A DNA stretch of 64,000 nt from an uncultured Candidatus Saccharibacteria bacterium (GTDB lineage Bacteria > Patescibacteriota > UBA1384 > DTJR01). The notes beneath the pieces were generated by a model. It did no database searches, was not told the origin of the DNA, and saw nothing but the letters and a program-made list of their open reading frames with translations. Position numbers and translations under genes: made by a program. Below are positions 2,584 through 32,956 of the stretch, one piece after another (within the stretch, counting starts at the first letter, position 1; each line of letters opens with the position of its first letter). The DNA lies in assembly GCA_964487045.1 (NCBI GenBank), contig CAZAOT010000003.1:72983-136982 (forward strand). The letters run 5' to 3'.

Positions 2584-3657
2584 CTAGGATTTGCCCCAAT
2601 CGAGATCGGGGTCTTCGAGGTCGAATGATCGTCCGCGGATGAATGGATAGATGCGGGTGATCGAGAGGTTGAGGTGCTCAATGGTTTCACGGCTGAGGAT
2701 TGGCTTGGGCTTGTTGCGAAGTGCCCCGAACAACCGATGGACTTCATAGTCATTCATCTGCAGCAGCAGAAGCGTTGGATTGGCGTCTTGGAAATGCTCA
2801 GAAGACGAGATGAACTCATAACAGCGTTCAAGCTCGCTGGCAAACGGCTTGCGATTAGCGTTGAGCGGTACGTAACAGTTAGCGTACATCCAATCGCGTA
2901 GTCGCCAGAATTCCTTGGCTTCGTCGCTCTTAGAGAAACTGATCCGACCTACCGATGCCGATTCCCTTACCAGGGCATTTGCGAAGTTGAGCAGCCTCTC
3001 TTCCTTGGTTCGTCCGAAGCACATCGCTTGATGGTCGGCCTCTTCGAAGCCTGCTCCGATCCGCAAACCATCCTCGATGTCAGAGAACATGTAGATTTTG
3101 TCTACGATGTTCACCAGGCGAAACTCCTGAGGAAGCCATATGTACTTCTGCCGAGAAGTGCCTGAGTGGTGGTAGATTCCAAGCAGAGTTTCATAGGCCA
3201 GGTCGAGACCTTTGCCCGAGTGTTCAATTCTCTGTAGGTTCAGGCAGGCGATAATGCGGTGGTCGATCGTCAAACCACACAGCTTCGAGATTGTCTCCTC
3301 TCCAAAATGACCGAAGGGTGCGTGGCCGGTGTCATGCCCTAGCCCAACCGCTTCTGTCAAGTACTCATTTAGCTTGAGGAACCAGGCTATGAGCTTAGCG
3401 AGACTTGCAACCTCCATGATGTGAAGCAGTCGATCATTACTGGTCGATTCTTCTCTTCCGATGAAGACTTGGGTCGTTCCATGCTTGCGAAACAGGGACT
3501 CGCTATTGCCGACCCAGTAAGCATCCTCAATGAAGCCTCGCTTACCGGTTGGTCTCCTTCGCCCTCCCTCTTTCTTTGGTCGTCGTCCGCGACTCATCTC
3601 TTCTTGGAACCGTAGGTGCGCCAAGCACCCACGATATCTCTTGTCGAGGTTTAACAC
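2584..3657 (-). CDS. dGTP triphosphohydrolase-like HD-domain protein, GC-rich cassette 2
   Basis: Motifs TTQVF, HIMEV and GLGHDTGHAPFGH match the dGTPase/SAMHD1-type HD signature. GTG start at 3657 lies 7 nt after GGAGGTG. Composition is GC-rich. Confidence 0.75.
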   Translation of the reverse strand: MLNLDKRYRGCLAHLRFQEEMSRGRRPKKEGGRRRPTGKRGFIEDAYWVGNSESLFRKHGTTQVFIGREESTSNDRLLHIMEVASLAKLIAWFLKLNEYLTEAVGLGHDTGHAPFGHFGEETISKLCGLTIDHRIIACLNLQRIEHSGKGLDLAYETLLGIYHHSGTSRQKYIWLPQEFRLVNIVDKIYMFSDIEDGLRIGAGFEEADHQAMCFGRTKEERLLNFANALVRESASVGRISFSKSDEAKEFWRLRDWMYANCYVPLNANRKPFASELERCYEFISSSEHFQDANPTLLLLQMNDYEVHRLFGALRNKPKPILSRETIEHLNLSITRIYPFIRGRSFDLEDPDLDWGKS

Positions 3658-4326: not shown

Positions 4327-4932
4327 TTATTTTTCTTTTTCTGGCTTTTCGTGTTCCTGATAGTCGATTGGTCTTGAAAGGTCGATTTCTTTCTTGTCTT
4401 CTTCGATCAACTTAATTACTTTTTCAATTAATTTTTTGGGATCATCGTCATAGACAATTTTGGGGTTTGGCCGACCGCATTCCTGAACTATCTCATTGAT
4501 TTCTTCGGCAATTCCCCCGGTACCAGTGAGGATTCCAATCGGTTTATGATCTTCAAAAGCAATCGTAAATTCGTTTAGAGTTCCGATTCTTCCACAGACC
4601 GTTATAACCGCATCAGCTGATCTGATCAGAAGAAGGTTTCTTCCTGAATAGCCAAAGCCGGTGTAAATAATGATATCGAACTCTTCAGTCGGTAATTTAT
4701 ATTTTTTAACATGTTCAAGCTCACTTGAAGCAGGTGAGATCCCGATCGAAAAACCTTCCTTAAGCGACTTACATCCCTTGGCAGCCCAGAGCGGTGCTCC
4801 AATTGTAGCTCCAGTTACCAGCACTCCTTCTTGACGAACGATCTCGCGACCTAGTTCTGTAGTCATCTCTTCAGCTTCCGGCGAGCAAGTTCCGGTTACT
4901 GCTGAACCTGATACACAAATTTTATACTTCAT
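4327..4932 (-). CDS. LOG/TIGR00725-like Rossmann-fold protein
   Basis: Pattern VSGSA...LVTGATIGAPLWAAKG...GYSGRNLLLIRSADAVITVCGRIGTLNEF is typical of the LOG / lysine-decarboxylase-like family. Confidence 0.65.
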   Translation of the reverse strand: MKYKICVSGSAVTGTCSPEAEEMTTELGREIVRQEGVLVTGATIGAPLWAAKGCKSLKEGFSIGISPASSELEHVKKYKLPTEEFDIIIYTGFGYSGRNLLLIRSADAVITVCGRIGTLNEFTIAFEDHKPIGILTGTGGIAEEINEIVQECGRPNPKIVYDDDPKKLIEKVIKLIEEDKKEIDLSRPIDYQEHEKPEKEK

Positions 4933-6298
4933 TGTTCTCCTTTGATTCGCCCGAAAATTCGATCGATTCAGAATTCTTGGGGATATCTATTTCAATATTC
5001 ATCGTTTCTTTAATTTTGGCCATTAAAGCCTCTTTAGCTTCAGGCTCGCCGTGAACTAGAACGATTTTCTTAACATTTTTAATCTGCGAGACCCACTCGA
5101 CAAGTTTTGGTTGGTCAGCATGCGCGGAGTATGATTGTATCGGGATGATTTTTGCTTTGGAGAAAATTTCACTGCCTCTTATTTTAACTTCCTTATCTCC
5201 GTCAAGCAATCTTCGCCCAAGAGTGCCTTTTACCTGATAACCGACGATCAAAAGCGTTGTATTTTCCTTTGGCAAAAATGCTTTTTCGTGCCATTGAATT
5301 CTACCGCCATTCGACATTCCTGAGCCAGCAATGATGATTTTGGTCGATTCGTCCTTATCTAACTTCATTGAATCTTCGCTTTCTTCAATCATCTTTAGAC
5401 CTTTAAACTCGAAGAAGTCGTCGCCTGATTTTAAAAGGGCCGTAGCTTCGGCATTATAATACTGAGGATATTTAGCGTAAACTTCAGTCGCCTTAATCGC
5501 CAGCGGACTATCAAGATAAACAGGTATAAATGGAATGCTTCCGCCTTCAACTAGGCCGTTTAGTTCATATAGGATCTCTTGAGTTCTTTCCATTGCAAAT
5601 GATGGCATTAGAATAGTTCCATTTTCGCTAATCGAGTCTTTGATAATCTTCGTGAGCTGCTCTTTACGTTTTTCCATCGGTTCATGTTCTCGATCGCCAT
5701 AGGTCGATTCCATAATTACTAAGTCTGCTGATTCAATAAATTCAGTTTTCTTAAGCAGGGGAACTGGAGGATTGCCGAGATCACCCGAAAAAATAATTGT
5801 TTTTCCTTCTGCCTGGATTTTGACAATTGCTGATCCAAGAATATGACCCGCATCATAAAATTCGACTTCCACGCCTTCAATAGGTGAGAATTTCTCGTGA
5901 TAATTTTTTTCTTCAATTAAGGCAACTGTTTTAGCGACATCATCTAGATCATATAATGGTTGTTTATTAACGTACTCGGCTTCATTTTCCATTAAGTGGC
6001 ATGAGTCTTCGAGGAAAATTTTGGCAAATTCTTGAGTTGGCCCAGTAGCATAAATTTTTCCGCCAAATCCCATTTTTACCAGGTGTGGTGTTCGACCAAT
6101 GTGGTCAATGTGAGAGTGGGTCATGATCATCGCACCGACGTCTGCTGGGTTATAGGGGAACTCCTGCCAGTTTAAGACTGTTTCATCGTCCCCACCTTGA
6201 AACAGACCGCAGTCGATAATCAGTTTGCCAGCGCTAGTTTCAAGTAGATAATTTGATCCTGTCACACCTTCGGTAGCTCCACAGAATGTAATTTTCAT
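4922..6298 (-). CDS. MBL-fold beta-CASP ribonuclease-like hydrolase
   Basis: HSHIDHIG metallo-beta-lactamase motif, and a length and C-terminal region consistent with a beta-CASP RNA-metabolising enzyme. Confidence 0.8.
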   Translation of the reverse strand: MKITFCGATEGVTGSNYLLETSAGKLIIDCGLFQGGDDETVLNWQEFPYNPADVGAMIMTHSHIDHIGRTPHLVKMGFGGKIYATGPTQEFAKIFLEDSCHLMENEAEYVNKQPLYDLDDVAKTVALIEEKNYHEKFSPIEGVEVEFYDAGHILGSAIVKIQAEGKTIIFSGDLGNPPVPLLKKTEFIESADLVIMESTYGDREHEPMEKRKEQLTKIIKDSISENGTILMPSFAMERTQEILYELNGLVEGGSIPFIPVYLDSPLAIKATEVYAKYPQYYNAEATALLKSGDDFFEFKGLKMIEESEDSMKLDKDESTKIIIAGSGMSNGGRIQWHEKAFLPKENTTLLIVGYQVKGTLGRRLLDGDKEVKIRGSEIFSKAKIIPIQSYSAHADQPKLVEWVSQIKNVKKIVLVHGEPEAKEALMAKIKETMNIEIDIPKNSESIEFSGESKENNEV

Positions 6299-6990
6299 TC
6301 GTTGCTCCCTGCTTTATCTTTTTCTTCTTCCGTCTCAATCCCTATGATCTTGAGCGCCGAGCTTGTTCCAATTCGAGTGGCGCCTGCTTCAATCATACCC
6401 TTAGCCTCTTCGAATGTATGGATTCCGCCCGATGCTTTGACCTTTACCTCGTCCCCCACAGAAGCACGCATCGTCTTAATATCATCGATGGTCGATGGTC
6501 TTGGGCCGTAGCCAGTCGATGATTTCACAAATGCTGCTCCTGCTTTCTCGGCTCTCTTGCATGCTTCGGTTAGCTCTTCTTCTGTTAGAAAGCCAACTTC
6601 CATAATAACTTTGAGGCCAATTGGCTGAATCGCTGTTGCGATTTCCCTGATTTCTTCTTCGATAAAATCAAATTTCTTCTCTTTAATTGCTCCAATGTTA
6701 ACAACCATATCAATCTCGGTTGCGCCATCTTCTACAGCGAGCTTGGCTTCGGCTACTTTAATTTCGGTTTTTGAAATACCAAATGGAAAGCCAATTACAC
6801 TAATTACTTCAATATCGGCTCCTTCGAGATATTCTTTTGCGGCTGCTACGCGGTAGGTAGTGACGCAAACACTATGAAAACCATATTCCTTAGCTTCAGA
6901 GCAAAGCTTTTTGATGTCTTCATTTGTAGCATCTGCTTTGACACAAGTGTGGTCAATATAAGAAACGATATTTTCTTTTGTAATATTCAT
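6295..6990 (-). CDS. deoC: deoxyribose-phosphate aldolase
   Basis: YIDHTCVK, VIGFPFG, EIDMVVNIG and FVKSSTGYG are DeoC class I aldolase motifs. Confidence 0.9.
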   Translation of the reverse strand: MNITKENIVSYIDHTCVKADATNEDIKKLCSEAKEYGFHSVCVTTYRVAAAKEYLEGADIEVISVIGFPFGISKTEIKVAEAKLAVEDGATEIDMVVNIGAIKEKKFDFIEEEIREIATAIQPIGLKVIMEVGFLTEEELTEACKRAEKAGAAFVKSSTGYGPRPSTIDDIKTMRASVGDEVKVKASGGIHTFEEAKGMIEAGATRIGTSSALKIIGIETEEEKDKAGSNE

Positions 6991-7130
6991 TAAATCTCCT
7001 CAAGTTTAGGTCCTTCGATTCCTGCCCCTCTACCTGACGCACTGCAATAACAGGACGGAGTCAGTTTTGCAGTAAGGAATGGTGTGGGGTGGTCAATATA
7101 TTTTCTAATTGATTGTTGATCTAGTTCCAT
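6990..7130 (-). CDS. upstream mini-ORF (46 codons): DeoC-like N-terminus (..YIDH) fused to conserved tail PTPFLTAKLTPSCYCSASGRGA
   Basis: ATG at 7130 lies 4 nt after AAGGAGGG. The ORF is in frame through the 68-nt element. Its TAA overlaps the deoC ATG as TAATG at 6992-6988. Confidence 0.45.
   Translation of the reverse strand: MELDQQSIRKYIDHPTPFLTAKLTPSCYCSASGRGAGIEGPKLEEI
7021..7088 (-). repeat. 68-nt conserved hairpin element, copy 1 (inverted relative to copy at 13990-14057)
   Basis: CCCACACCATTCCTTACTGCAAAACTGACTCCGTCCTGTTATTGCAGTGCGTCAGGTAGAGGGGCAGG. I counted 59 of 66 positions identical to copy 2. The stem is CTGCAAAAC/GTTATTGCAG. Confidence 0.85.
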
Positions 7131-7157
7131 TTTCCCTCCTTATAACGATACAAATGC

Positions 7158-7185: not shown

Positions 7186-7226
7186 GAAAAGAGAAAGGGC
7201 CGCCGTGTCGAATGACATGGCGGCCC
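7186..7226 (-). terminator. intrinsic terminator of cassette 3
   Basis: Arms GGGCCGCC (7197-7204) and GGCGGCCC (7219-7226), extendable to about 13 bp. TTTCTCTTTT follows on the minus strand. Confidence 0.8.
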
Positions 7227-7245
7227 TGGTTGTGCAGTGAGAGCT

Positions 7246-7968
7246 CTAGCTTGGTAGCTGAAGCGGAGTTAGATACTCAGCAGCTCTGGGAGTCGCCTTG
7301 ATGTCAGCTTTGTATCCATAGGTTCTCGCTGTCTCCAGATCCCAAGCGTAACTACCAGCGGGCTGAGTGGGCCTTGCGATGATTCGCGGGTCAAACCCTA
7401 TCTCATTTCCGGTCGTTGCCCAGTCGATATATGGGTTGATGTCAACTTCATACCGGAAAGGATCGGTCCGATCGCCGGCAGCAAGTGTAGCCAGCTCATC
7501 TAGACGATCGTCTGGCCAGTAAACCTTGCTTGTTGTCTGGCGGTTTTCGATCTCGACCCATTCATCGCCAACTGAGATGACTTCCGCTTCGTCGAAATGG
7601 ACAAATGCCTCTTGCGGAATCTCAATCTCCGGAAACATCAACTCCTCGGGACAGAGCTGTTCGAAGAAGGTCGTGCCAAGTAGCGTTATGCTGTCATCCC
7701 CACGTGGGATGACAAAGTAGGGCTGGTTTTCGTATGCGCCCCACTTCTGGCCAGGCCAGAGATAGCCAAGCGCCCAATCACCGTCTTTTTGCTGATAGAC
7801 GAGCCATGCCGCGCCGCTTCGAACTTCCCACGCTACTGAGCAAAAGTTGTGAAAAGCTGGTTCGGCTGGCCGCTCCGGTGATATCCTTAGCAGGAAAGAG
7901 CAGCACATGTCGGCTTTGTACATGAACGAGTCGATGATCCTTGGCCTAAACTGAAGCCGGTTTGGCAT
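7246..7968 (-). CDS. hypothetical protein, GC-rich cassette 3
   Basis: ATG at 7968 lies 6 nt after AAAGGAGG. The track start at 7992 is less well placed. 240 aa, no motif recognised. Confidence 0.6.
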   Translation of the reverse strand: MPNRLQFRPRIIDSFMYKADMCCSFLLRISPERPAEPAFHNFCSVAWEVRSGAAWLVYQQKDGDWALGYLWPGQKWGAYENQPYFVIPRGDDSITLLGTTFFEQLCPEELMFPEIEIPQEAFVHFDEAEVISVGDEWVEIENRQTTSKVYWPDDRLDELATLAAGDRTDPFRYEVDINPYIDWATTGNEIGFDPRIIARPTQPAGSYAWDLETARTYGYKADIKATPRAAEYLTPLQLPS

Positions 7969-8028
7969 GTCTGCCTCCTTTTGTTCTTTCAAATGCTACA
8001 GGGTTGCATAAAGCTTGCCACTTTGCAG

Positions 8029-8953: not shown

Positions 8954-9523
8954 CTAGCCCTTGCAGTCAGGGCATACGATCGTGATTTGGTTTCCTACGC
9001 CGGACCCTGTGTCCGGAATGAAGGGATCTCCACAGCGGAAGCAGTATCTGGGTTCACCTGCAACCAGCTTCTTGTCTGCATCCGAGCAGACCTTGCACTT
9101 GCGGGGATTCCAGAGGTTGCGTCTGCTTGGGGTATAAGCACCGCAATGTGGGCAGTAGAAGTGTGTCATTAGGCGTTGCCCAGTGCTCTTGGCGACAGGC
9201 GGGATCCAGCGCTTGATCGTGAAGCGCTGCTCCAAACCAGGGTGCAACTCTACCGTAGCGCCGTGGCCGCTGGTAGCTCGGACAGCAAAGCCGTTTTCCA
9301 GAAAGAGGTTCGCTATCTGCGCGAGTTCGCCCAGAGGTTCCTGGTTGAGGGCAGTTGCCAACTCAACATAGCATAGTTCTTCTGGAATGCTAGCGGCAGG
9401 CTGGTTGATTTCGACAGCGATACGAGCTTGCTGCTCCTCGGGTAGATTTGCCAATAAGGCAGTAATCCGCCCCTTGAGCGCGTCTGCTTCTTGGCTTGTA
9501 CTGGTGACTCGGGCGCGGATCAT
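8954..9523 (-). CDS. double zinc-ribbon protein, GC-rich cassette 4
   Basis: The C-terminal 70 aa carry four CxxC pairs (CPHC, CKVC, CFRC, CPDC). The N-terminal about 110 aa are unassigned. SD AGGGAG is upstream. Confidence 0.65.
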   Translation of the reverse strand: MIRARVTSTSQEADALKGRITALLANLPEEQQARIAVEINQPAASIPEELCYVELATALNQEPLGELAQIANLFLENGFAVRATSGHGATVELHPGLEQRFTIKRWIPPVAKSTGQRLMTHFYCPHCGAYTPSRRNLWNPRKCKVCSDADKKLVAGEPRYCFRCGDPFIPDTGSGVGNQITIVCPDCKG

Positions 9524-10074: not shown

Positions 10075-10149
10075 GGGCCTGTAGCTCAGTGGTAGAGCAG
10101 TTGCCTTTTAAGCAACGTGTCGTGGGTTCGATACCCACCAGGCCCTCCA
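10075..10149 (+). tRNA. tRNA-Lys (anticodon UUU), CCA encoded
   Basis: Hand-folded cloverleaf. Acceptor stem GGGCCTG/CAGGCCC, D stem GCTC/GAGC, anticodon stem GTTGC/GCAAC with loop CTTTTAA, T arm GTGGG-TTCGATA-CCCAC. 75 nt in total. Confidence 0.92.
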
Positions 10150-13773: not shown

Positions 13774-13816
13774 AAGCCAATCATATCTAATCTAGATTGA
13801 GAGTAAAGATTGAAGA

Positions 13817-13845
13817 TTGACTAATCGGCGAAAATAGTGTATATT
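13817..13845 (+). promoter_or_regulatory. promoter TTGACT-17-TATATT for the typA leader
   Basis: TTGACT at 13817-13822 and TATATT at 13840-13845. A leader of about 108 nt with two hairpins follows. Confidence 0.6.
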
Positions 13846-13953
13846 CTATTGGTTGTAAACAGCCAAAGAAGGCTTTTTGATCTATTTCGCATAGCGAAGA
13901 GATCAACCCTTCCATAGCTCTTTGAGCGAAGGAGGGTATTCTTTTTAAAAATT

Positions 13954-14070
13954 ATGATTCGAAACGTTGCGATTATTGCTCATGTAGACCCCACACCGCT
14001 CCTTACTGCAAAACGGATTCCATCCTGTTATTGCAGTGCGTCAGGTCGAGGGGCGAGAGATGACAAATAA
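13954..14070 (+). CDS. upstream mini-ORF (38 codons): TypA-like N-terminus (MIRNVAIIAHVD) fused to conserved tail PTPLLTAKRIPSCYCSASGRGA
   Basis: In frame through the 68-nt element, with TAA at 14068-14070. The nearest GGAGG is 17 nt upstream, so translation is uncertain. Confidence 0.35.
   Translation: MIRNVAIIAHVDPTPLLTAKRIPSCYCSASGRGARDDK
13990..14057 (+). repeat. 68-nt conserved hairpin element, copy 2
   Basis: CCCACACCGCTCCTTACTGCAAAACGGATTCCATCCTGTTATTGCAGTGCGTCAGGTCGAGGGGCGAG. The stem is 14006-14014 paired with 14027-14036. Confidence 0.85.
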
Positions 14071-14081
14071 AATTTTGCCAA

Positions 14082-15902
14082 ATGGATATGAATAAAATTA
14101 GAAATGTAGCTATCATAGCTCATGTAGACCACGGAAAGACCACGCTTGTCGATGGTCTATTAAAGCAGTCCCATACTTTTCGTGACAACCAAGCCGAGAT
14201 GAATCAGACGCTCATTATGGACTCAAACGATCAGGAGAGAGAGCGCGGAATTACAATTTTGGCTAAAAATACCGCAGTAAATTACAAAGATACTAAAATT
14301 AATATTATTGATACTCCTGGCCACGCCGATTTCGGTGGGGAGGTGGAGCGAACGCTCAATATGGCAGATGGCGCGATCCTTGTAGTTGATGCTCAAGAAG
14401 GACCAATGCCTCAAACAAAGTTTGTTTTGAAAAAAGCGCTTGATTTAGGGCTAAAGATTATTGTAGTAATAAACAAAATTGATAAGAAAAATGCGCAAGT
14501 TGAAAGTGTTATAGAAAGAACTTCAGATCTATTTCTTGATTTAGCTTCTGATGAGTCACAGCTCGAATTTCCAATTTTGTTTTCAATTGCCAAGCAAGGT
14601 AAGGCTTGGAGCGAAATGCCACAGAATTTTGAAGAAGACGGTGATCTTTCGAAAATTTTTGAAGCAATTTTGCAGTATATTCCTGCGCCAAAAGTCGAAG
14701 AGGGTCCATTTCAGATGCTTGTATCGGCCTTGGATTGGGATAGCTATCAGGGAAAATACGCAATCGGAAAAATTTCAAGAGGAAAAGCGATGGCTGGTCT
14801 TCAGGTGAGTTTGGTAAATGAAGATGGCGTAAAAGAAAATACTCGAATTGATAAGATTTTTGTTAGCAGCGGTTTGGTCAAACAAGAAGTTAAGGAAGCC
14901 GTGTGTGGCGACATTGTTTCAATTACCGGAATTAAGAACGCTGGAATTGGCGAAACAATCGCTGATCAGACGAGTCCCGAGGCTCTGCCGGGCATAAGTA
15001 TAGAAGAGCCGACCCTTTCGATGGCAATTTCAGCCAATACTTCGCCATTTGCTGGCAAGGAAGGTAAGTTTGTTACTGGCCGACAAATTTTAGACAGAAT
15101 TAAAAAAGAACTAGAGACAAACGTTTCGCTAAAATTTAAACAGGGCGAGGAAGGCGAATATATTCTCTCTGGCCGAGGCGAACTTCACTTGTCCGTCTTT
15201 ATTGAAACTCTTCGTAGAGAAGGTTTTGAGCTTCAAGTTGGTAAGCCACAGGTTATTATCAAAGAGATTGATGGCATTAAGAGCGAACCACTTGAAGAAT
15301 TAACGGTTGATGTCGAAGATCAGTATGTAAATAACGTGATCGCCGAGGTTATAAGACGAAAAGGTGTTTTGCATCATCAGAACCCACTTCTTGATGGCAC
15401 GACCAGGCTTATTTTTGAAATTACAACGCGTGGAATGCTCGGTCTTAGAAGCCAACTAATGACTCTTTCGCGCGGAACAGCTGTCGCTAACTCGATATTT
15501 TTAAGATTTGAAAAAGTTATGAGCGAAATTCCAAGACTTCGAAACGGAGTTTTGATCGCTTCTGAAGATGGCAAGGCTGTAACTTATGGGCTTGATATAG
15601 CTCAGGGCCGAGGAATCACATTTATCGAGCCACAACAGCAAGTCTATAAAGGTATGATTATCGGGCTTAATTCAAAAGAGTCTGATATCGAAATCAATGT
15701 AGCCAAAGAGAAGCATTTGACCAATATTCGAGCTGCTTCTTCTGATATGACCACGGTTTTGACCCCAGCAACAATTTTGTCACTTGAACAATGTATTGAC
15801 TTTTTGGAAGATGACGAGCTTCTTGAGGTTACTCCAACGTCACTTCGACTTCGAAAGAAGATACTCGATCCAACGCAGCGAAATAGAGCTAGAATTCGCT
15901 AA
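14082..15902 (+). CDS. typA: translational GTPase TypA/BipA
   Basis: G1 motif AHVDHGKTT, then DTPGHADF and NKID. Length and C-terminal domains are typical of BipA. The start could also be the ATG at 14088. Confidence 0.95.
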   Translation: MDMNKIRNVAIIAHVDHGKTTLVDGLLKQSHTFRDNQAEMNQTLIMDSNDQERERGITILAKNTAVNYKDTKINIIDTPGHADFGGEVERTLNMADGAILVVDAQEGPMPQTKFVLKKALDLGLKIIVVINKIDKKNAQVESVIERTSDLFLDLASDESQLEFPILFSIAKQGKAWSEMPQNFEEDGDLSKIFEAILQYIPAPKVEEGPFQMLVSALDWDSYQGKYAIGKISRGKAMAGLQVSLVNEDGVKENTRIDKIFVSSGLVKQEVKEAVCGDIVSITGIKNAGIGETIADQTSPEALPGISIEEPTLSMAISANTSPFAGKEGKFVTGRQILDRIKKELETNVSLKFKQGEEGEYILSGRGELHLSVFIETLRREGFELQVGKPQVIIKEIDGIKSEPLEELTVDVEDQYVNNVIAEVIRRKGVLHHQNPLLDGTTRLIFEITTRGMLGLRSQLMTLSRGTAVANSIFLRFEKVMSEIPRLRNGVLIASEDGKAVTYGLDIAQGRGITFIEPQQQVYKGMIIGLNSKESDIEINVAKEKHLTNIRAASSDMTTVLTPATILSLEQCIDFLEDDELLEVTPTSLRLRKKILDPTQRNRARIR

Positions 15903-16448: not shown

Positions 16449-16473
16449 GTTGGCCAAAATAGGGAGGCAGATT

Positions 16474-17739
16474 GTGGACAAAGAAGCGATCCAAGGCGCC
16501 CGCAGGGCGCTTCTGCTCAAGAAGCTTGAAGTAGCATCAACGACCAAGGAATGCACCCTTGCGTTCCAGGGTCTCAAGCTCTACAGAGATGACCTTTCGA
16601 TTGTCGCCACTCGTAAGAGAGCGATTGAGCTCGCAGCTTCGGCAGGCGACATGGATGAGGTTCGTCGCTTTCCGTATGATGTGGGTATCTTCTCTCTGGG
16701 AGATCAGGCTTCCGAGTTCTTTCGTAAGGCCATGCTGCTTTGCAGGCCTGAAGAAGTATACGACTTCACAGGCAACTTCGGCTATTACGCCGATGAAGTT
16801 GTTAGCTTCCTTGTCGAGGGGCTTACCGATCCGCTCAAGCTGACTCGACTAGCGATGCGACTCGGAGCGGAGGGTCTGCTTGAGCGCGGACAGGAAGTGA
16901 TCGCTCGGGCTGCTGAACTGGCTGCAAGCTGGGAAGTGTGCGGTTATGTCGGGACGATACACTATGCGCCGCTTCCGACAGGGTTTCTGACCATGGCCGT
17001 CCTTCTCGCTGAGGGGCAGAAGGGTTACGATGCTCCTCTCGAAGTTTGTGGGTGGATGAAGGCTTCGCTCAACGACCCGCTCGAATTCAGACAAGCAGCG
17101 GCTGTTGCCGAGCTGCTTGATGCGCCAAACAAGCGTATCAGGCGGGTAGCCGGAGAGCGGATCAGGCAGGCTTACCAGGAGAAACTGAGCGGCCAAGATG
17201 GCGACTTCTATATCCAAAGCGCCTGGAACGTCGTTTGCGATGCCCGCGATGCGCTTCCGGAACTGGCTGCAGAGCTGACCGCTGATCTCGTGGTGCGTCT
17301 GACAGATGCGGTACCAGCCTGTCAGGACTTTTCGGAGGCAAAGTCGCATCTTGAAGTCGCTTCCGCAATGGAGGACTTCGGGATCGATGGAGTCTACTGG
17401 CCGGCAGCCATGCGTGCGATGGAGCTGGCAGAGGGCTGTGATGATATCCTGGCGTTGGTGCGCCTTGGCATTCATGTCCAGGAGCTCACCGAGGCTGTCC
17501 TGGTAATGGCTGCAACCGAAGATGATATCATTGCAGTCATACAGCGCAACCCGAACTTCTCTGGTGAGTGGACGTTGCCTCTTTGCGAGCGGATCTTCGA
17601 CTATCGGCGCCAGAGGGCGCAGACGATCGAGGACTTCATGATTCTGCATCACCTGACCAAGGACCCGGTCAAACTGGCCGAGGTCGAGGATCGCATCCAG
17701 GAGCTCATCGCTCCATACCATACCGAGCCTGAGGAGTAA
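16474..17739 (+). CDS. hypothetical all-alpha protein (about 421 aa), cassette 6 gene 3
   Basis: GTG at 16474 lies 6 nt after GGGAGG and is in frame with the track start at 16450. The sequence is acidic and Leu/Ala-rich. A terminator follows. Confidence 0.65.
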   Translation: MDKEAIQGARRALLLKKLEVASTTKECTLAFQGLKLYRDDLSIVATRKRAIELAASAGDMDEVRRFPYDVGIFSLGDQASEFFRKAMLLCRPEEVYDFTGNFGYYADEVVSFLVEGLTDPLKLTRLAMRLGAEGLLERGQEVIARAAELAASWEVCGYVGTIHYAPLPTGFLTMAVLLAEGQKGYDAPLEVCGWMKASLNDPLEFRQAAAVAELLDAPNKRIRRVAGERIRQAYQEKLSGQDGDFYIQSAWNVVCDARDALPELAAELTADLVVRLTDAVPACQDFSEAKSHLEVASAMEDFGIDGVYWPAAMRAMELAEGCDDILALVRLGIHVQELTEAVLVMAATEDDIIAVIQRNPNFSGEWTLPLCERIFDYRRQRAQTIEDFMILHHLTKDPVKLAEVEDRIQELIAPYHTEPEE

Positions 17740-23966: not shown

Positions 23967-24599
23967 TTATCTCTGCCACCAAGATGATTTCTTTTGTTTA
24001 TCGAGATCTTTGAGCTTTTGCCATAAATCTTTTTGTTCTTTAGTAAGACGCTCTGGGAAACGGATTCTAATAATTATAATTAAATCACCTTTCTGACCAT
24101 TTCTGGTTGCTCGTCCTTTTTCTTTGATTCGGTATTGTGTTCCGTCTTGAGTCCCAGGATGTATCTGGAGGGTGATTTTCTCGTCCCCTACTTGAAGGTC
24201 GAATTCATCTCCAAGTACAGCTTGGGCAGGAGAGATTTCAACTTCTGCTTGTACGGTAGCGAAAGCATTTGAAAAAAAGTCTCCGAAAATGTCGCCTAAG
24301 CCACCCATATTGCCAAAATTGAATTCAAAACCTTCACCGCCAAAGTCATAACCACCAGATTGATAACCACTAAATCCGCCTTGGCCGCCGCTACCAGAGA
24401 AGCCACTTTGGCCAAAACGATCATATTGGGCTCTTTTTTGGGGATCGGAAAGAACCTGGTATGCTTCGTTAATTTTTTTAAATTCGGCCTCATCGCCTCC
24501 TTTATCCGGATGATGCTTCAAAGCAAGCTTTCGATAAGCTTTTTTTATCTCGTCTGCGGAGGCGTTTTTGTCTATGCCGAGTAGTTTGTAGTAATCCAT
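23967..24599 (-). CDS. J-domain co-chaperone (short DnaJ/CbpA-like, no zinc finger)
   Basis: YYKLLGI...[14 protein letters not shown] is followed by a G/F-rich region. The Cys-rich domain is absent. Confidence 0.88.
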
Positions 24600-24708
24600 T
24601 TTTATATTATTTTTGGGTGTTAAAATTAATTAATCCGCATCTGCGGATAACCTACTGCCAAAGCTAATTTTACCTATTTAGGAGCGGGATGTAAAGAGGG
24701 CTTTACTT

Positions 24709-25512
24709 TTAGAACATATCTTCTTGACGGGTAGGGGTCTCGCTTAGCAACGCCTGAGCAGTTGAAGTTGCAGTGGCCTGAGCATTGGCCGCTACTGATC
24801 CAGAAACTGATGGCTGAGTGTTTAGAATCTCATTAGCAGCGGTATTTCCGGCATTATCGATAACATTTATGCTCCAGCCAGTATCCATAGGATAAAGCTT
24901 AGTCTGAGCAATTATTCCAGGATCGATGAGTTTAAATTTCTCAGTCTGAGTAAATTGCTCATAAGCTGCTGAGAATAGATTTAAGCTACCCGTTTGGTTT
25001 GTCTGACACTTAAGATCGGATGCAATGTCACGTCTAGCGATAAAACTTCTAGTTTTTTTAACCGAACCATAGGAATTAAGTTCAACTAACCAATAATAAT
25101 CCTTAGAAAAATCGTCGTTATAGAATAGGAAACCCTGAATATTCTGGCTTGTTAATTGTGCGCCGTAGAATGTAATAATCGTTCCACAATATTTTGCTCC
25201 ACCCTTTAAAGCTCTCTGCGCGTCTTCTAGGGCTAATTGATAATTTGTCTTGTAAGTATCGTCAATTTGAGTCTTCTCTTCGACAAAACTATCAATTTGC
25301 TGATAGCTTTTAGGCTGACTAGAATTCTGATTGCTTGCATTAGAAACGGAGGAGCTTGTCGCCGTTGCCGCCAGGCTGCCGGCTGCAGCAGGCAGAGCTT
25401 CAGAAGCAATATTAGAACTATTAACCTTGGACGTCGTATCTGATTTTTTAGTGCAGGCGCTCAAAGAAAGCGATATCACTACTACAGCAAAAACAAACAC
25501 AAATTTTTTCAT
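24709..25512 (-). CDS. lipoprotein, unknown function
   Basis: Lipobox LSLSAC, followed by a Ser/Ala-rich linker. Confidence 0.65.
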   Translation of the reverse strand: MKKFVFVFAVVVISLSLSACTKKSDTTSKVNSSNIASEALPAAAGSLAATATSSSVSNASNQNSSQPKSYQQIDSFVEEKTQIDDTYKTNYQLALEDAQRALKGGAKYCGTIITFYGAQLTSQNIQGFLFYNDDFSKDYYWLVELNSYGSVKKTRSFIARRDIASDLKCQTNQTGSLNLFSAAYEQFTQTEKFKLIDPGIIAQTKLYPMDTGWSINVIDNAGNTAANEILNTQPSVSGSVAANAQATATSTAQALLSETPTRQEDMF

Positions 25513-25613
25513 TATTTATATTCTACCAAAAGACCCCGGAACCTGCACACGGCCTGGAAGCGGCTACAACCAGCTCGATAATGCAGGATTCCGGGGTCTT
25601 TCTTTTAAAGAAC

Positions 25614-27512
25614 TTACTTTTCTTCTTTGGTTTCCTCAGTCTTTTCTTCTGCTTTGTCAGATTTTTCCTCTGACTCTTCAGCCTTCTCCTCTGCTTTTTC
25701 TTCAGGAGCAGCGGCTGAGTAAAGCTCTTGCCCAACCTTCTGGATAGTTTCAGAAAGTGCATCTGTTGCCGACTTGATCTTGTCGGACTCTTCGCCCTTC
25801 AAAGCTTCTTTAACTGCTTCAACTTTCTCTTCAACTTCCTTCTTGGTTTCGGCTTTGACTTTATCGCCAGCGTCTTTTAGGGCTTTTTCACTAGAATAGA
25901 CAAGTGTCTCGGCAGTATTTCTAGTTTCTATCTCTTCCCTTTTCTTTTTATCTTCCTCGGCGTGGGTTTCAGCATCTTTGCGCATTTTTTCTACTTCTTC
26001 TTCTGAGAGACCACTTGAAGCGGTAATGGTAATTTTTTGTTCTTTTCCGGTTGCCTTATCCTTGGCCTTAACGTTTAGGATTCCATTTGCGTCTATATCG
26101 AAGCTGACCTCAATTTGTGGTACACCACGAGGTGCTGGGGGAATGCCATCGAGAGTGAATCTTCCTAGAGTCCTATTGTCAGCAGCCATCTCTCTTTCAC
26201 CTTGAAGGACATGGATTTCTACTTGTGGTTGATTGTCAGCTGCAGTAGAAAAGACCTGGCTTTTCGATGTTGGGATGGTTGTATTTCTCTCAATAAGCTT
26301 AGTCATAACTGATCCTAGAGTCTCAATTCCAAGCGATAGAGGAGTGACATCTAGTAGGAGGATATCTTTAACTTCTCCTGCTAAGACTCCACCCTGAATG
26401 GCAGCACCGAGGGCAACTGCTTCGTCTGGGTCAACGCCCTTAGATGGTTCTTTGCCGAATATTTCCTTAACCTTGTCTTGAACTGCTGGCATTCTAGTCA
26501 TACCTCCGACCAAGATTACCTCATCGATATCCTTGGCTTCGACACCGGCATCTTTCATTGCTTTCTGGCAAGGTTTGGTGGTTTTTTCAATGAGGTCGCC
26601 AACTAGAGAAAGAAGCTTGGCTCTATTGATAGTCATGACCAAATGTTTTGGTCCAGAAGCGTCAGCGGTGATAAATGGAAGGTTTATTTCGGCTTCTTGC
26701 TTGCTTGAAAGCTCAATCTTGGCTTTTTCGGCTGCTTCTCTGATTCTTTGAAGTGATGCGGCATCAGCTGTTAGGTCGACACCTTGATCTTTTTTGAACT
26801 CATCAACAATGAAGTCCATAATCTTTTGGTCAAAGTCATCTCCTCCTAAGTGAGTGTCTCCGTTAGTTGCTTTGACTTCTAGGACATCGCCGCCAACTTC
26901 TAGAATAGTGATATCGAAAGTTCCGCCTCCAAGGTCGAAGACAGCTACTTTACCTTCTTGTTTCTTATCAAGTCCATATGCAAGAGCTGCAGCAGTTGGT
27001 TCGTTTATAATTCTCTTTACATCAAAACCAGCAATTTTACCTGCATCTTTGGTAGCTTGACGCTGAGAGTCATTGAAATAGGCCGGTACGGTGATAACTG
27101 CTTCTGTTACCGCCTCACCCAAGTAGTCCTCTGCGTCCTTTTTAATTTTTTGCAAAATAAAGGCTGAGACCTCCTGAGGTGAATAGTCCTTACCAGCAAT
27201 TTTTACTTCAACCGAATTGTTCTTGCCTTCTACGATTTCATAAGGCATTAATTTTTTGTCTCTTGTCACCTCTTCGTCGTCAAAACGTCGTCCGATCAAA
27301 CGCTTGACCGAAGACACGGTGTTTTTTGGGTTGGTAACTGCTTGGCGCTTAGCTAGTTGGCCAACCAGTCTTTCTCCCGACTTAGTTTCCGCGACCATAG
27401 AAGGAACCAGCTTCCCGCCTTCTGCTGATGGCATGAGCTTGGGCTTTCCGCCTTCGATAACAGCGGCAGCCGAGTTGGTCGTTCCGAGGTCGATTCCGAT
27501 TATTTTACCCAT
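25614..27512 (-). CDS. dnaK: molecular chaperone DnaK (Hsp70)
   Basis: [17 protein letters not shown] and the other Hsp70 signatures. ATG at 27512 follows AAAGGAAG. The track start at 27560 adds 16 unlikely residues. Confidence 0.97.
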
Positions 27513-27639
27513 ATTGCTTCCTTTCTTCGCTTTAGGATTAGGTTTGCGCTGCTTATGCAACCCACCTATAAATTTTTATTAACTAAAATAATTGTAAAGT
27601 AGACTTTACATTTTGTCAAGAGTCAGTTACTTAATAGGT

Positions 27640-28551
27640 TTAAATTCTTTCGAGTTCAATTGAACTAGCACCAGCTTTGATGGTAAGTTCAATTTTTTTA
27701 CTAGATGAGTCAAAATTGTCAGAAGTATAATCGTCACCCGACTTCTTTAGTCCAACTTCAGTGAAATTATTAGAGCTGGCACCAGATTTTGAGTTTACTT
27801 TAAGCCCAGAGGACTTTGGCACTTTGATTTTAAGAGAGCTTGCTCCAATATCAAACTGACCAGAAAGCTTATCTAGCTTATCGCCAAGCCTAATATTGTA
27901 TGAAGATACTCCGCTTTTTACGATCAGATTTTCCAGATTTACTTCTTGAAGTTCAAGATTTCCGTCGACCGCTCCAGTGTTTAGCTCGAGGGAGGTTCGC
28001 AATGACTTATTAAGGCTTAGTTGCCAATCATTTTTAATTCGATTAAAGAAGCTAATTCTATTTGATGAAGTGCTAAGCTCAATATTTTCTTCGCCATCAC
28101 TAATACTTCGATTAACGTCAACAGGAAAATTTCCATCGATAGTTCCACTGATCAGTTGATCGGAATCTCCATCAATGTTTAATTTTGCCGCTCCTGTTTT
28201 GATGGTTACCTTGGCGCTTTTGGACTGATCGGAGGCACTTTCATCAATATATTGGGTAGCTGAAGCTTGGTTGTAAGTAGATGAATTCTTATCAAAGGAG
28301 TAATTGCCGGAAGTAATGACCCAAGCAAGTCCAGCGATAATCATAATTACTACAACAATATTTAAGATGATTTGACCAATAGTTGAGAGGGATTTAGAGA
28401 TTATTGAGAGTCCGGCAACAATTAAGATAAGTGGCCAAAGCTTCCAGATACTAGCCCAAATTGTTGGACTCAAAACGCCATAATTTATAAGCAGGAAGAT
28501 CAGTCCTATGAAGATGACTATTAGGCCCCAAATTAATTTGCCTATGTTCAT
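27640..28551 (-). CDS. membrane protein with beta-rich C-terminal domain (LiaF/DUF4097 toastrack-like)
   Basis: Three N-terminal TM helices, then a repetitive Ser/Asn/Gly beta-strand region. It overlaps the PspC gene by 4 nt. Confidence 0.55.
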   Translation of the reverse strand: MNIGKLIWGLIVIFIGLIFLLINYGVLSPTIWASIWKLWPLILIVAGLSIISKSLSTIGQIILNIVVVIMIIAGLAWVITSGNYSFDKNSSTYNQASATQYIDESASDQSKSAKVTIKTGAAKLNIDGDSDQLISGTIDGNFPVDVNRSISDGEENIELSTSSNRISFFNRIKNDWQLSLNKSLRTSLELNTGAVDGNLELQEVNLENLIVKSGVSSYNIRLGDKLDKLSGQFDIGASSLKIKVPKSSGLKVNSKSGASSNNFTEVGLKKSGDDYTSDNFDSSSKKIELTIKAGASSIELERI

Positions 28552-29015
28552 TTCTTCTCCTTTTTTGATTTTTCTTCTATTTTTTTATTAGGTGACTTTG
28601 ACAAGATTGCGATTCCTACGGCGATGATAATTAGAGGCCAGAGTTTATCAAACCCCACGTGCCAGAAAGGAAAGAATTCTTGAAGAAGAAACGAAACACC
28701 AAGCAAGATGATAATTAATCCGCCCACTAGCCTAAAATTGTTTGTTCCCGAAGCTTCTTTGAGCTCGGAAGCCATTTTGTCGGCACCTGATTTAATATTT
28801 TCACCGACTTCTTTGGATCTTTTTTCTCCTTTTTCAGGAATTAGGATCCACATAACTAGGTAGACGACGACTCCGCTAGCACCAAATACGGCAAGCAAAA
28901 TAAAAATTAATCTAAATACTATCGGGTCGATCTCAAAATATTCACCAAGTCCGCCACAAACACCTCCAATTACTCGGTCAGTGCTTGATCGATAAAGTTT
29001 TTTATCTTCCTGCAT
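28548..29015 (-). CDS. PspC-domain membrane protein
   Basis: RVIGGVCGGLGEYFEIDPIVFRLIFIL is the PspC signature. Confidence 0.88.
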   Translation of the reverse strand: MQEDKKLYRSSTDRVIGGVCGGLGEYFEIDPIVFRLIFILLAVFGASGVVVYLVMWILIPEKGEKRSKEVGENIKSGADKMASELKEASGTNNFRLVGGLIIILLGVSFLLQEFFPFWHVGFDKLWPLIIIAVGIAILSKSPNKKIEEKSKKEKK

Positions 29016-29023
29016 ATTGTTCC

Positions 29024-29485
29024 TTATTTTTTGCCCGAGGATGTTATCACCTGGGCTGCTCTTATAATTTTATCGCCAATTTTATAGCCTGGCTTTTGAA
29101 TTCTTACAATTGATTCTTCTGGTAAATCAGATGGTTCGACAGCAATTGCCTCGTGGTTATTTGGGTCAAAGGCAGAGCCAATCTCGGGTGCTATCTTTAC
29201 AATATTCTGGTCCGATAGAGTCGTTTCAATTTGACCCACTATGATATCGACACCTTTAACCCACCCGTTTTCTTTGAGCTCTTCAGGGGTATGGTGGGTC
29301 ATCAAGGTCAGATTGTCGAGAAGTGGAATAATCTGCGAAAGCAAATCGATCTTGGCTTGGTCGGTCCAGTTTTTTTTATCAGACTCGGTTCTTTTTTTGT
29401 AATTTTCAAAATCAGCAGAGACTCTTAAGTAAAGCTTCTGAAAATCATCTTGTTTAATATCTTGAGATTTTTTTGTTTTTTCCAT
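29024..29485 (-). CDS. grpE: nucleotide exchange factor GrpE
   Basis: DFENYKKRTE motif, with size and position next to dnaK. Confidence 0.88.
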   Translation of the reverse strand: MEKTKKSQDIKQDDFQKLYLRVSADFENYKKRTESDKKNWTDQAKIDLLSQIIPLLDNLTLMTHHTPEELKENGWVKGVDIIVGQIETTLSDQNIVKIAPEIGSAFDPNNHEAIAVEPSDLPEESIVRIQKPGYKIGDKIIRAAQVITSSGKK

Positions 29486-31556: not shown

Positions 31557-32394
31557 CTACCTGCTGCTAGCAGTTGTTTTAGTTGGTCTTTTTCTGTATT
31601 CGACAATATATCAAAATGCTCAAGCCAACATTGACCCTGCCTCAGCCAAAATTAGTTTTTTGGATGTCGGCCAAGCGGATTGCGCATTAGTTAATTTGCC
31701 AAATAATAAGCAAATTCTGATCGATGCAGGCAAATCGTCAGACGTTGTCTCGAAAATAAGATCGAGGATGCCGGCCTTTGATTCGGAGATAGAAGCGGTT
31801 TTCTTGAGTCATCCAGATAGTGACCATGTTGGAGGGTTTGTCTCGGTTCTTAATTCTTACAAAGTCGACAAAGTTTATCTGAACACCGATCAATCTGACT
31901 CTAAGACTTTTGACGCGATTTTAGCTGAAATGGATAAGCAAAAAATTTCTCACGAAGTGATCGGCTCTGGACGAGACGTGTATATAGAAGATCTGCGAAT
32001 CAAAACGCTTTGGCCTTCGGAAAATAGTGGTTCCTTAAGTGAAAATAATCGCTCCTTGGTGCTAAAGCTAATGATCAAATCGGGAGTCGCTCTTTTTACG
32101 GGAGATCTCGAGATAGAAGGGCAGAATAAATTAATGAGTGAATATAAGGAAGAAGATCTTTTGGCAGATTTGTATAAAGTTCCACATCACGGAGCCTCTG
32201 GAGCGTGGAATGAAAGCTTTGCCCAGAAGGTTAAACCCAAAAATGCTGTGATTTCGGTAGGTAATAATTCATATGGTCATCCTGGGCAAAGTACAATTAC
32301 GGGACTTGAGAAGATAGGAAGTAAGGTTTATCGCACAGATCAGCTAGGTACGATTGATTTTGTCCTAAGTGAAGCGGGATTTGTGTCAAAATAA
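31531..32394 (+). CDS. ComEC C-terminal MBL-fold domain encoded as separate ORF
   Basis: FLDVGQADC, HPDSDHVGG and VPHHGA motifs. It overlaps the previous ORF by 26 nt in the +1 frame. The start is a TTG. Confidence 0.78.
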   Translation: MLNQNKIFDYLLLAVVLVGLFLYSTIYQNAQANIDPASAKISFLDVGQADCALVNLPNNKQILIDAGKSSDVVSKIRSRMPAFDSEIEAVFLSHPDSDHVGGFVSVLNSYKVDKVYLNTDQSDSKTFDAILAEMDKQKISHEVIGSGRDVYIEDLRIKTLWPSENSGSLSENNRSLVLKLMIKSGVALFTGDLEIEGQNKLMSEYKEEDLLADLYKVPHHGASGAWNESFAQKVKPKNAVISVGNNSYGHPGQSTITGLEKIGSKVYRTDQLGTIDFVLSEAGFVSK

Positions 32395-32398
32395 TACT

Positions 32399-32436
32399 TA
32401 AAAAAGAGGAAAGCCCCCCGCCATGCGGCAGGGGGC
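32399..32436 (-). terminator. intrinsic terminator of cassette 8 (probably bidirectional)
   Basis: GCCCCCCGCC/GGCAGGGGGC stem. TTTCCTCTTTTTT follows on the minus strand. Confidence 0.8.
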
Positions 32437-32461
32437 CTTGTTTCCCGGTGCGATGAAAGTC

Positions 32462-32911: not shown

Positions 32912-32956
32912 TTTGGACACCTCTTTCAAAGGTGCTGGAATTGACTGATTCGGGTA

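Follow-up and report, generated by a model that had tools for sequence, protein, structure and literature searches.

A 69-nucleotide hairpin between duplicated gene starts at deoC and typA in a Candidatus Saccharibacteria contig: a candidate miniature integrative cassette

Folded single strands take part in recombination in several systems, among them the attC sites of integrons, the CTX phage with XerCD and the IS200/IS605 family (IS608). Rickettsia palindromic elements are small, palindromic, non-coding and dispersed; they are tolerated within genes, are open in some reading frames and are read through as part of the host protein, and they carry no duplicate of their target. The mobile elements of Allomyces mitochondria insert into atp6 together with a foreign copy of the host gene's C-terminus. 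In Escherichia coli, the e14 prophage in icd leaves a displaced fragment, icdC, and its excision leaves icd unaltered except for two conservative substitutions and changes that are synonymous (PMC13626634). We analyze here a stretch of 64,000 nucleotides (nt) of contig CAZAOT010000003.1 from an uncultured Candidatus Saccharibacteria bacterium, referred to as the window, in which the genes deoC and typA each have a duplicated start interrupted by the same 69-nt hairpin, hereafter element E. We rate E together with the gene start that follows it as a miniature, gene-less, multi-target version of a target-regenerating integrating element, and there is a real chance that its mechanism has not yet been described.

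deoC and typA each carry a block of 140 nt, made of E, a short spacer and a second gene start; it is an inserted piece that severs the native start of the gene and provides a new one in its place (Table 1). More specifically, a 46-amino-acid upstream open reading frame (ORF) at deoC opens with MELDQQSIRKYIDH, a duplicate of the MNITKENIVSYIDH with which the DeoC protein opens, runs through E and ends in a TAA that overlaps the deoC ATG as TAATG (6992-6988), and the 12-mer TATATTGACCAC stands at both junctions, 140 nt apart. An earlier note, made from the sequence alone, had described this architecture, and all of it is in the sequence, as is its recurrence at typA, where the repeats again lie 140 nt apart and E is 88% identical to the deoC copy over 69 nt; one correction concerns the element at deoC, which occupies 7089-7021 (69 nt) and not 7088-7021 (68 nt). 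The typA upstream copy ends in GTAGA, immediately followed by E, and the His codon lies outside this copy. The identical deoC locus, including the 46-amino-acid ORF, has been assembled independently from three sequencing runs (L018-L020), and gene callers annotated that ORF in three independent assemblies.

Loci outside the window, numbered L, were collected with a loose pattern, run once over metagenomes and once over genomes, which returned 16 real loci and one chance match (L015, from Phycisphaeraceae, within a GC-rich gene); further E loci were added through searches with upstream-ORF peptides and look-ups of TypA relatives. A first genome scan with a stricter pattern had given zero matches. 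The earlier note had proposed such a search in other genomes, and the 16 loci answer it.

Our favored reading, to which we give about an even chance, is that E is a small non-autonomous mobile element, part of an integrative cassette that carries its own replacement gene end and moves in and out by recombination at the repeats. A miniature integrative element with a replacement 5' end and an att-like repeat was among the explanations listed in the earlier note; it is the best fit to the empty typA sites of two relatives, the cassette found in another, the selection on both gene starts and the co-varying repeats.

The empty sites are found among the relatives of typA. Of the 23 closest TypA proteins listed, 18 (the identities being 79-90%) start with MIRNVAIIAHVDH (MIRNV), as copy 1 does, and the functional start of the window gene, MDMNKIRNV, is unique among these 23. 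Two relatives, L025 (TypA 90% identical) and L026 (88%), have in common with the window the gene order NUDIX ... typA ... LysM, and the covariance model finds no E in either. The colinearity of L026 with window positions 13810-13988 takes in the promoter TTGACT-17-TATAYT, then a hairpin-T run and the leader, and finally the ATG with the first 35 nt, from where L026 passes straight into TCACGGAAAG; the join reads ATG..GTAGA directly followed by TCACGG, and the block is absent. In L025, only the proximal typA leader aligns with the window. Because both relatives lack the block and most relatives start as copy 1 does, the window corresponds to an empty site plus a 140-nt block composed of E, a spacer and a new N-terminus. 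On this comparison, typA copy 1 is the native start left stranded. We also considered L026 as a decayed cassette, its 45-nt extra leader being a remnant without copy 1 and E, and rejected this because that leader is colinear with the window leader upstream of copy 1.

A more distant relative, L030 (TypA 81% identical), is filled: it reads MIRNVAIIAHVD, E, a 24-nt spacer and MNQNRIRNVAIIAHVDH. Its spacer and new N-terminus align with those of the window, and its upstream region does not. A homologous cassette in two host backgrounds, with closer relatives empty, points to horizontal movement or to repeated precise loss, and either implies mobility. Native MQN(N/E)KIRN starts without E occur in a more distant clade (L031, L032) and resemble the cassette-borne N-terminus, which could derive from an allele of this kind. 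For deoC, a search against 50%-identity cluster representatives gave a top match only 55% identical, too distant for typing the N-terminus of close relatives.

Comparison of copy 1 with copy 2 at 11 loci gave 0.67 for synonymous (pS) and 0.20 for non-synonymous (pN) differences. Amino-acid-changing codons numbered 25, compared to 56.7 expected under neutral decay, and none of 20,000 simulations gave a value that low. In tsaD, for example, ILAIETSC is retained across 9 nucleotide differences, including TCG versus AGT for serine. The two gene-start copies therefore descend from two different functional alleles and have diverged under protein-level selection. A fresh tandem or target-site duplication was rejected, since synonymous sites are saturated between the copies and the spacer is not homologous to the native leader.

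Synonymous sites are saturated among lineages too (41-47% of codons are the same at identical residues in typA). Nevertheless, at deoC and typA the two copies of any one genome agree fully in the three or four codons that immediately precede the junction, and these codons differ between genomes. At deoC, both copies read TAT ATT GAC in the window (repeat TATATTGACCAC, twice) and TAT ATC GAT in the orthologous locus L021 (repeat TATATCGATCAC, twice); at typA, both read GCT CAT GTA in the window (GCTCATGTAGA, twice) and ATT GCT CAC GTA in L030 (ATTGCTCACGTAGA, twice). Counted by hand, codons for the same residue are identical in 15 of 20 cases at the two positions adjacent to the junction versus 22 of 49 farther away, a moderately strong difference. 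The pattern points to ongoing homogenization of the kind that repeated recombination at the repeats would give, and is strong only at deoC and typA. Homogenized repeats are our main reason for preferring a cassette that excises and integrates over a frozen scar; a plain recombination scar, as the earlier note had also considered, leaves the conserved, structured and dispersed 69-nt element unexplained.

These features resemble those of e14/icd-type elements and of islands at the 3' ends of tRNA genes, in which the element brings a copy of the gene end, the target is functional and the native end is left as a fragment. As with e14 and icd, most differences between the two gene-end copies are synonymous, there are short direct repeats on either side of the element and relatives have empty sites. 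We tested for four defining features of target-regenerating integrative elements and found three, namely flanking repeats, a replacement end with a retained fragment, and empty sites; an element-encoded integrase was not found, the only ORF in the 140-nt block being the read-through of the hairpin. Whereas e14/icd-type elements span kilobases, encode their own integrase and use one target each, the cassette described here is about 140 nt long and gene-less, the same hairpin is paired with at least seven different targets, the 5' ends of protein genes are hit and a constant folded hairpin abuts the repeat. The elements in Allomyces atp6 are similar in that a hybrid gene is made from a native part and an imported end, with the displaced native end beside the element, but they are much larger elements that encode a homing endonuclease and affect the 3' end.

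The consensus of E is CCCCACACC..CCTTACTGCAAAAC-(4-bp stem, 3-nt loop)-GTTATTGCAGTGCGTCAGGTGAGGGGC(A/G)(A/G)G. A 45-nt degenerate pattern matches the window exactly twice, at deoC and typA (0 expected by chance), and a covariance-model scan of the window found no copy beyond these two. The set of E comprises 20 copies in 17 sources, and two in the window; structure was counted over 20 copies. Standard pairs fill 96.3% of the pair cells and 9 of the 22 pairs show changes on both sides, which is the covariation that the earlier note had suggested looking for. None of 500 shuffles matches these pairing and compensation values, and slid controls pair at 35-50%. The apical stem occurs as GGAC/GTCC, GGAT/ATCC, GAAC/GTTC and CTAT/ATAG. 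The outer stem, CCCC-A-CACC / GGTG-A-GGGG, is terminal at the 5' side, and a 4-nt tail, C(A/G)(A/G)G, lies beyond it at the 3' side. Because one U-G pair is invariant and one-sided changes yield U-G, the fold belongs to the written strand, as RNA or single-stranded DNA. Element E is a conserved fold specific to one strand.

No match to Rfam 15 was found at gathering thresholds in the window or in 8 loci, nor at an E-value of 10 for a longer variant of E described below, and collections of plasmids, phages and viral contigs contain no match to E. A tRNA-like cloverleaf made of the gene fragment, E and the next hairpin in L002 was dropped, as the acceptor pairing is absent in L007, where ARAGORN gives no match either. 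Of the three frames through E, a and b are open and only c is closed; the frame used is a at deoC, typA, L004, L008, L012, L021 and L024 and b at L013, L027 and L029. A peptide-coding element, and with it the 22-amino-acid tail to which the earlier note had drawn attention as a search query, is rejected because the frame varies among loci and copies are also non-coding or antisense to tRNA genes. Two database searches with E-derived peptides matched only five upstream-ORF proteins. The 22-amino-acid peptide read through E is incidental, a by-product.

Among the hairpin-based systems, the sites of attC, CTX phage and IS608 come close to E in form: as in these, E is a strand-specific imperfect hairpin that has conserved bulges and a wobble pair and directly adjoins the junction, a target duplication of fixed length is lacking, and the unit is small enough to exist only single-stranded. 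Unlike attC, E has no GTTRRRY core (RYYYAAC ... GTTRRRY), its ends being CCCCACACC and GGTGAGGGGCAGG. Unlike IS200/IS605, it forms one compound three-tier hairpin and not separate left- and right-end hairpins, and to the left of the junction there is no fixed tetranucleotide, only an A at -1 being common. No integrase or TnpA (Y1 HUH) linked to E was seen among the approximately 30 window ORFs scanned. In size, palindromy, dispersal and tolerance within genes E is similar to Rickettsia palindromic elements, and two of its three frames are open; here, however, the upstream ORF usually stops and the gene restarts from the carried copy of the N-terminus. Like miniature inverted-repeat transposable elements, E is short, non-coding and present in several copies, but no fixed-length target-site duplication directly flanks it. 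The earlier note knew of no described element that behaves in this way, and we found none of this kind in the databases and literature searched, which is weak evidence given the incomplete coverage of the literature.

The sources of E are many metagenomes and two metagenome-assembled genomes, in assemblies from JGI, ENA, NCBI and Logan. The names on the TypA relatives and on locus L017 point close to Candidatus Berkelbacteria (Patescibacteria), and judging from these names the carriers are Berkelbacteria-like Patescibacteria. Copies per genome appear few. In protein genes, E is always in sense orientation, within the first 6-17 codons and directly after a conserved motif: after YID(H) in deoC (window, L021), AHVD in typA (window, L030), ETSCD in tsaD (L012) and GHSKWA in a yebC-like gene (L013). 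Genes for NAD-dependent epimerases are hit at five loci and two positions, after ILVT (L004, L008, L029) and after GGxGF (L024, L027). In tRNA genes (L002, L007, L009), E is antisense and lies in a 3' fragment, at the edge of T-loop and T-stem or just past the T-stem. Accordingly, the suggestion in the earlier note that GACCAC, an Asp-His codon pair, is the general target does not hold, the junctions being GTAGA at typA, other motifs elsewhere, or a place in the T-arm or variable region of a tRNA. Position -1 before E is A in 12 of 13 junctions, often within NGA, and a fixed tetranucleotide is not seen. Other copies lie in leaders or between genes: upstream of gap (L001), upstream of rpsT (L016), among DnaA boxes (L017) and apparently stand-alone (L014). 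In the unbiased DNA scan, 6 of 13 loci, as well as both window copies, are in gene-start fragments and 3 more are in tRNA fragments. Wherever E is associated with a gene the layout is constant: a fragment of the gene end lies 5' of E, and the complete gene follows 3' of it at a distance of 19-55 nt. Copies are not grouped by target gene, those in tsaD and in an epimerase gene being 97% identical.

Several copies have peculiarities of their own. In L009 (7-147), two tandem copies 10 nt apart occupy two different tRNA positions in one tRNA-Thr 3' fragment, the first of them only about 57% identical to other copies yet with the fold kept. In L012, the tsaD fragment is bracketed by two head-to-head copies, since only 50 nt upstream of it there is a second, diverged copy in inverted orientation (390-456; 68 bits, with compensatory changes in the stem). 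Short duplications are possible at this inverted copy and at the DnaA boxes of L017, where the sequences are AT-rich or naturally repeated, and we draw no conclusion from them. The typA copy in L030 (167-261) has a 30-nt GC-rich hairpin, CCTGCCCGCCGAAGCCTCGACGCAGGCGGG, nested in its apical loop, and the region upstream of it contains other hairpin repeats, TGTCATTCCGGACTTGATCCGGAATCC, and the string GGGGCAAGCAAGTTCAGGA, also found after E in L013. A longer variant of E occurs at L014 2440-2740 (also L011), L016 6650-6860 (also L006) and L001 5010-5150. It has a conserved 3' extension, consisting of CTTCCTGA, a hairpin with compensatory changes, and then AGGAGCGGAGG; in L014 and L016 there is in addition a 50-nt insert after CCCCACACC. 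The L014 copy, which has a promoter-like site ahead of it and a terminator behind it, resembles a stand-alone unit. About 1.8 kb from it, just downstream of the end of a 16S rRNA gene, lies a gene for a small GIY-YIG-type protein (L014 409-675; domain assigned by eye).

The dimensions of the block are similar from gene to gene. Cassettes in genes measure about 104-143 nt, most often 139-143 nt; across 12 loci, the distance from junction to junction is 139-143 nt in seven and 104, 113, 116, 131 or 136 nt in the remainder. The N-terminal part of the cassette ranges from 19 to 51 nt despite the preferred period of 139-143 nt. The 140-nt offset that the earlier note had found at both deoC and typA is real at both, but its being equal is partly coincidence: in L021, where copy 1 reads MELTTESIKKYIDH, it is 141 nt.

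The place where the upstream ORF stops is consistent as well. In 9 of the 10 protein-gene loci read, the upstream ORF ends no more than about 15 nt from the real start or overlaps it by a few bases (TAATG, TAAATG, ATGA and ATGTCTAA are examples); in L008 it runs in frame into the gene. Such an arrangement fits termination followed by re-initiation. The typA leader of L026, which has no E, contains at 2455-2500 a short ORF, MTLSIGSGQVVFE, with only 2 nt between its end and the typA ATG, and start-proximal termination may be usual for typA even without E.

Put together as a mechanism, the favored reading would run as follows. The cassette would consist of E itself (69 nt), a short spacer that contains a ribosome-binding site, and a copy of the end of the target gene that serves as its replacement. 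In protein genes it would insert close to the 5' end, within a stretch coding for a conserved motif, and in tRNA genes within the 3' part, so that the native gene end is severed and kept as a fragment 5' of E while the cassette-borne end joins the gene body in frame; the gene would be broken and rebuilt in a single step. Entry and exit would proceed through recombination between the two repeats, by one of two routes. A trans-acting enzyme might recognize the folded hairpin beside the repeat, in the way that folded single strands are recognized by integron integrases and by Xer or HUH enzymes. Alternatively, ordinary homologous recombination after DNA uptake might suffice, the gene-end copy acting as both homology arm and rescue; the conserved gene-end copy would then be the short arm and the gene body the long one. 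Either route would explain why the stretches coding for the most conserved motifs are targeted. No promoter-like or terminator-like site was found within the cassette block, and expression would run from the native promoter: ribosomes would initiate at the native start, read through E, stop at or next to the new start and re-initiate there. In the window, adjacent ORFs at 30138-32394 match a ComEC-type competence domain and a metallo-beta-lactamase domain, which points to an ability to take up DNA. The genes for DnaK, DnaJ and GrpE lie just upstream of this comEC region (23967-29485).

Going further, E could be the constant recognition module of a retargetable integration system, in which a gene-end copy of approximately 20-50 nt targets by homology and rescues the gene, a natural counterpart of engineered 'home-and-rescue' gene-drive cassettes. 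A single-stranded unit of about 140 nt would then pass from lineage to lineage by way of conserved DNA that codes for motifs. We put this extended version forward tentatively and consider it unlikely as a whole.

Several observations weigh against the cassette reading. Flanking identity reaches 11-14 nt only at deoC and typA and is 1-8 nt at the other loci, and several loci (L008, L029) have almost no matched flank. In at least four loci, and less clearly in three more, copy 1 resumes after E, with TGAAACAGCAG in L012 (11 of 11 nt), CCATCGAC in L007 (8 of 8) and 10 of 13 nt in L002, and a continuation is probable in L008 and L004 as well (codons for T-G-G-A). There, E looks like a clean, duplication-free insertion in a gene fragment, which a cassette running from repeat to repeat does not predict; where both flanks are readable (L012, L007), no base is duplicated at E and the repeats lie 104-143 nt apart. 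A continuation in L013 is ambiguous, as the same GGGGCAAGCAAGTT..AGGA string lies upstream of typA in L030, and none is visible at deoC, typA, L024, L027 or L029. The patchy distribution could reflect repeated precise loss instead of horizontal gain. No recombinase or transposase was found among the approximately 30 of 62 window ORFs scanned against Pfam, the 64 kb covering only a small portion of the genome. Classical site-specific recombination would need a larger double-stranded circle than one of 140 bp, so that a single-stranded or homology-based route has to be assumed, and the cassette reading offers no account of the way in which the gene end of a new target is picked up.

The continuation of copy 1 for 8-13 nt past E in L012, L007 and L002, and probably in L008 and L004, is what one would expect if E were an ordinary small transposable hairpin that inserts at loose sites and kills its target. 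Survivors would then be rescued separately, either by one-sided homologous capture of a foreign allele following DNA uptake or by a local duplication just downstream, and there would be no mobile cassette and no role for the repeats. That copies of E do not cluster by target gene (97% identity between tsaD and epimerase copies), that some lie in non-coding DNA without a clear duplicate (L001, L014, L016), that the second copy is xenologous and that comEC is present in the window all agree with this account, which we regard as possible, if on the unlikely side. What it has difficulty with is the enrichment of E in gene-start and tRNA fragments, far above chance for rare relics; given this enrichment in gene-end fragments, insertion and duplication must be coupled. 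Nor does it account for the homologous spacer and N-terminus in the window and L030 despite differing host contexts, for repeats that co-vary within genomes though synonymous sites are saturated, or for the clustering of periods at 139-143 nt despite N-terminal parts of 19 to 51 nt, and an insertion in an essential gene such as tsaD could not await later rescue.

The remaining explanations take the block as it stands. If E were a structured leader RNA, with the upstream ORF as leader peptide and translational coupling as the control point, the strand-specific fold on the sense strand at every protein-gene locus and the stop at or near the real start in 9 of 10 loci would make sense, as would the copies in the 5' leaders of gap (L001) and rpsT (L016), followed by a conserved 3' extension that ends in the Shine-Dalgarno-like AGGAGCGGAGG. 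The earlier note had raised a regulatory upstream ORF or arrest peptide in this vein, and the position of the stops is consistent with it; the copies in tRNA genes and between genes are not explained. Since E is also found among DnaA boxes and in antisense orientation at tRNA genes, the genes that it targets have no function in common, E is missing in close relatives, the frame through it varies, a gene-specific duplicate of the N-terminus has no reason to exist and no Rfam match appears even at an E-value of 10, we consider a cis-regulatory device improbable. Skipping of the block, as an intron or by a ribosome hop from repeat to repeat of the phage T4 gene 60 type that would yield a protein with the native N-terminus, is very improbable. 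At deoC and typA, the take-off and landing sequences match over 11-14 nt and a stable hairpin immediately follows the former, which recalls gene 60, but no stop codon directly follows the take-off site and the downstream part has a start of its own, the second copy keeping its Shine-Dalgarno sequence, its ATG and selection at the protein level; in addition, there is almost no matched sequence at L008 and L029, the tRNA and non-coding copies cannot be translated, and no intron or ribozyme family matches. Finally, the earlier note had named misassembly, vector or adapter sequence as possible refutations. An artefact of assembly or cloning, such as a chimeric join, has next to no chance in view of the identical deoC locus in the assemblies of three independent runs, the related loci in JGI, ENA, NCBI and Logan assemblies, the compensatory changes among copies and the lack of a match in the plasmid and phage collections.

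Table 1. Features of the deoC and typA sites in the window; parts are named according to the cassette reading
Feature	Position	Strand	Remarks
Shine-Dalgarno AAGGAGGG	7134-7141	minus	native, drives the upstream ORF at deoC; read from sequence
46-amino-acid upstream ORF MELDQQSIRKYIDHPTPFLTAKLTPSCYCSASGRGAGIEGPKLEEI	6990-7130	minus	copy 1 plus read-through of E plus spacer; ATG at 7130
deoC start copy 1, displaced native fragment	7090-7130	minus	ATG..TATATTGACCA, coding MELDQQSIRKYID(H)
Left direct repeat TATATTGACCAC	7089-7100	minus	
Element E at deoC	7021-7089	minus	69-nt three-tier hairpin CCCCACACC...GGTAGAGGGGCAGG; covariance-model match 89 bits at 7025-7089
Cassette spacer at deoC	6991-7020	minus	new Shine-Dalgarno GAGGAG at 7001-6996; homologous to L021 spacer
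deoC start copy 2 MNITKENIVSYID	6950-6990	minus	functional deoC start
Right direct repeat TATATTGACCAC	6949-6960	minus	
Whole deoC cassette	6950-7089	minus	140 nt
deoC	6295-6990	minus	host gene regenerated by cassette; Pfam DeoC match in precomputed annotation
typA native promoter-like site TTGACT-17-TATATT	13817-13845	plus	colinear with typA promoter of relative L026
38-amino-acid upstream ORF at typA	13954-14070	plus	stop 11 nt before typA ATG
typA start copy 1 MIRNVAIIAHVD, displaced native fragment	13954-13988	plus	ATG at 13954
typA direct repeat GCTCATGTAGACC	13978-13990 and 14118-14130	plus	140 nt apart
Element E at typA	13989-14057	plus	69 nt; covariance-model match 87.4 bits at 13989-14053
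Cassette spacer at typA	14058-14081	plus	24 nt; homologous to L030 spacer
typA start copy 2 MDMNKIRNVAIIAHVD	14082-14128	plus	cassette-borne functional start; L030 counterpart MNQNRIRNVAIIAHVD
Whole typA cassette	13989-14128	plus	140 nt
typA	14082-15902	plus	host gene regenerated by cassette; ATG at 14082 encodes MDMNKIRNVAIIAHVDH

Other features of the window surround the two sites. GC skew changes sign at 7200-8000, being negative to the left and positive to the right with a cumulative minimum at approximately 7.6-8 kb, and the flanking genes diverge (deoC minus, typA plus). The sign change may mark an origin of replication or no more than a strand switch; in the former case, both copies of E would have their folding strand on the lagging-strand template. 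Six ORFs have a GC content of 52-65% in a genome of about 40% (1764-2147, 2584-3657, 7246-7992, 8954-9523, 16450-17739 and 32423-32944), and only 2584-3657 matches Pfam (HD domain). The interval from deoC to the tRNA gene at 10075-10146 contains two of the six, and the ORF at 16450-17739 lies between typA and the LysM gene, a place where the relative L025 has nothing; these high-GC ORFs may be foreign insertions. A SLOG (LDcluster4) protein is encoded at 4327-4932, directly downstream of the gene for a beta-CASP/RMMBL nuclease that follows deoC.

For annotation, such blocks produce spurious short proteins, the 46-amino-acid ORF being called as a gene in public assemblies, and atypical N-termini in conserved proteins of candidate phyla radiation genomes. 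Even if E were a plain transposon whose targets survived by selected rescue, the repeated repair of genes by foreign DNA would still be unusual. If the cassette reading is true, these blocks would be among the smallest known units that integrate into genes while keeping them alive, with one hairpin combined with many gene-specific rescue arms. They would show selfish DNA colonizing the most conserved, essential parts of very small genomes, as well as the swapping of gene 5' ends between lineages, and would suggest a compact natural design for insertion with built-in rescue.

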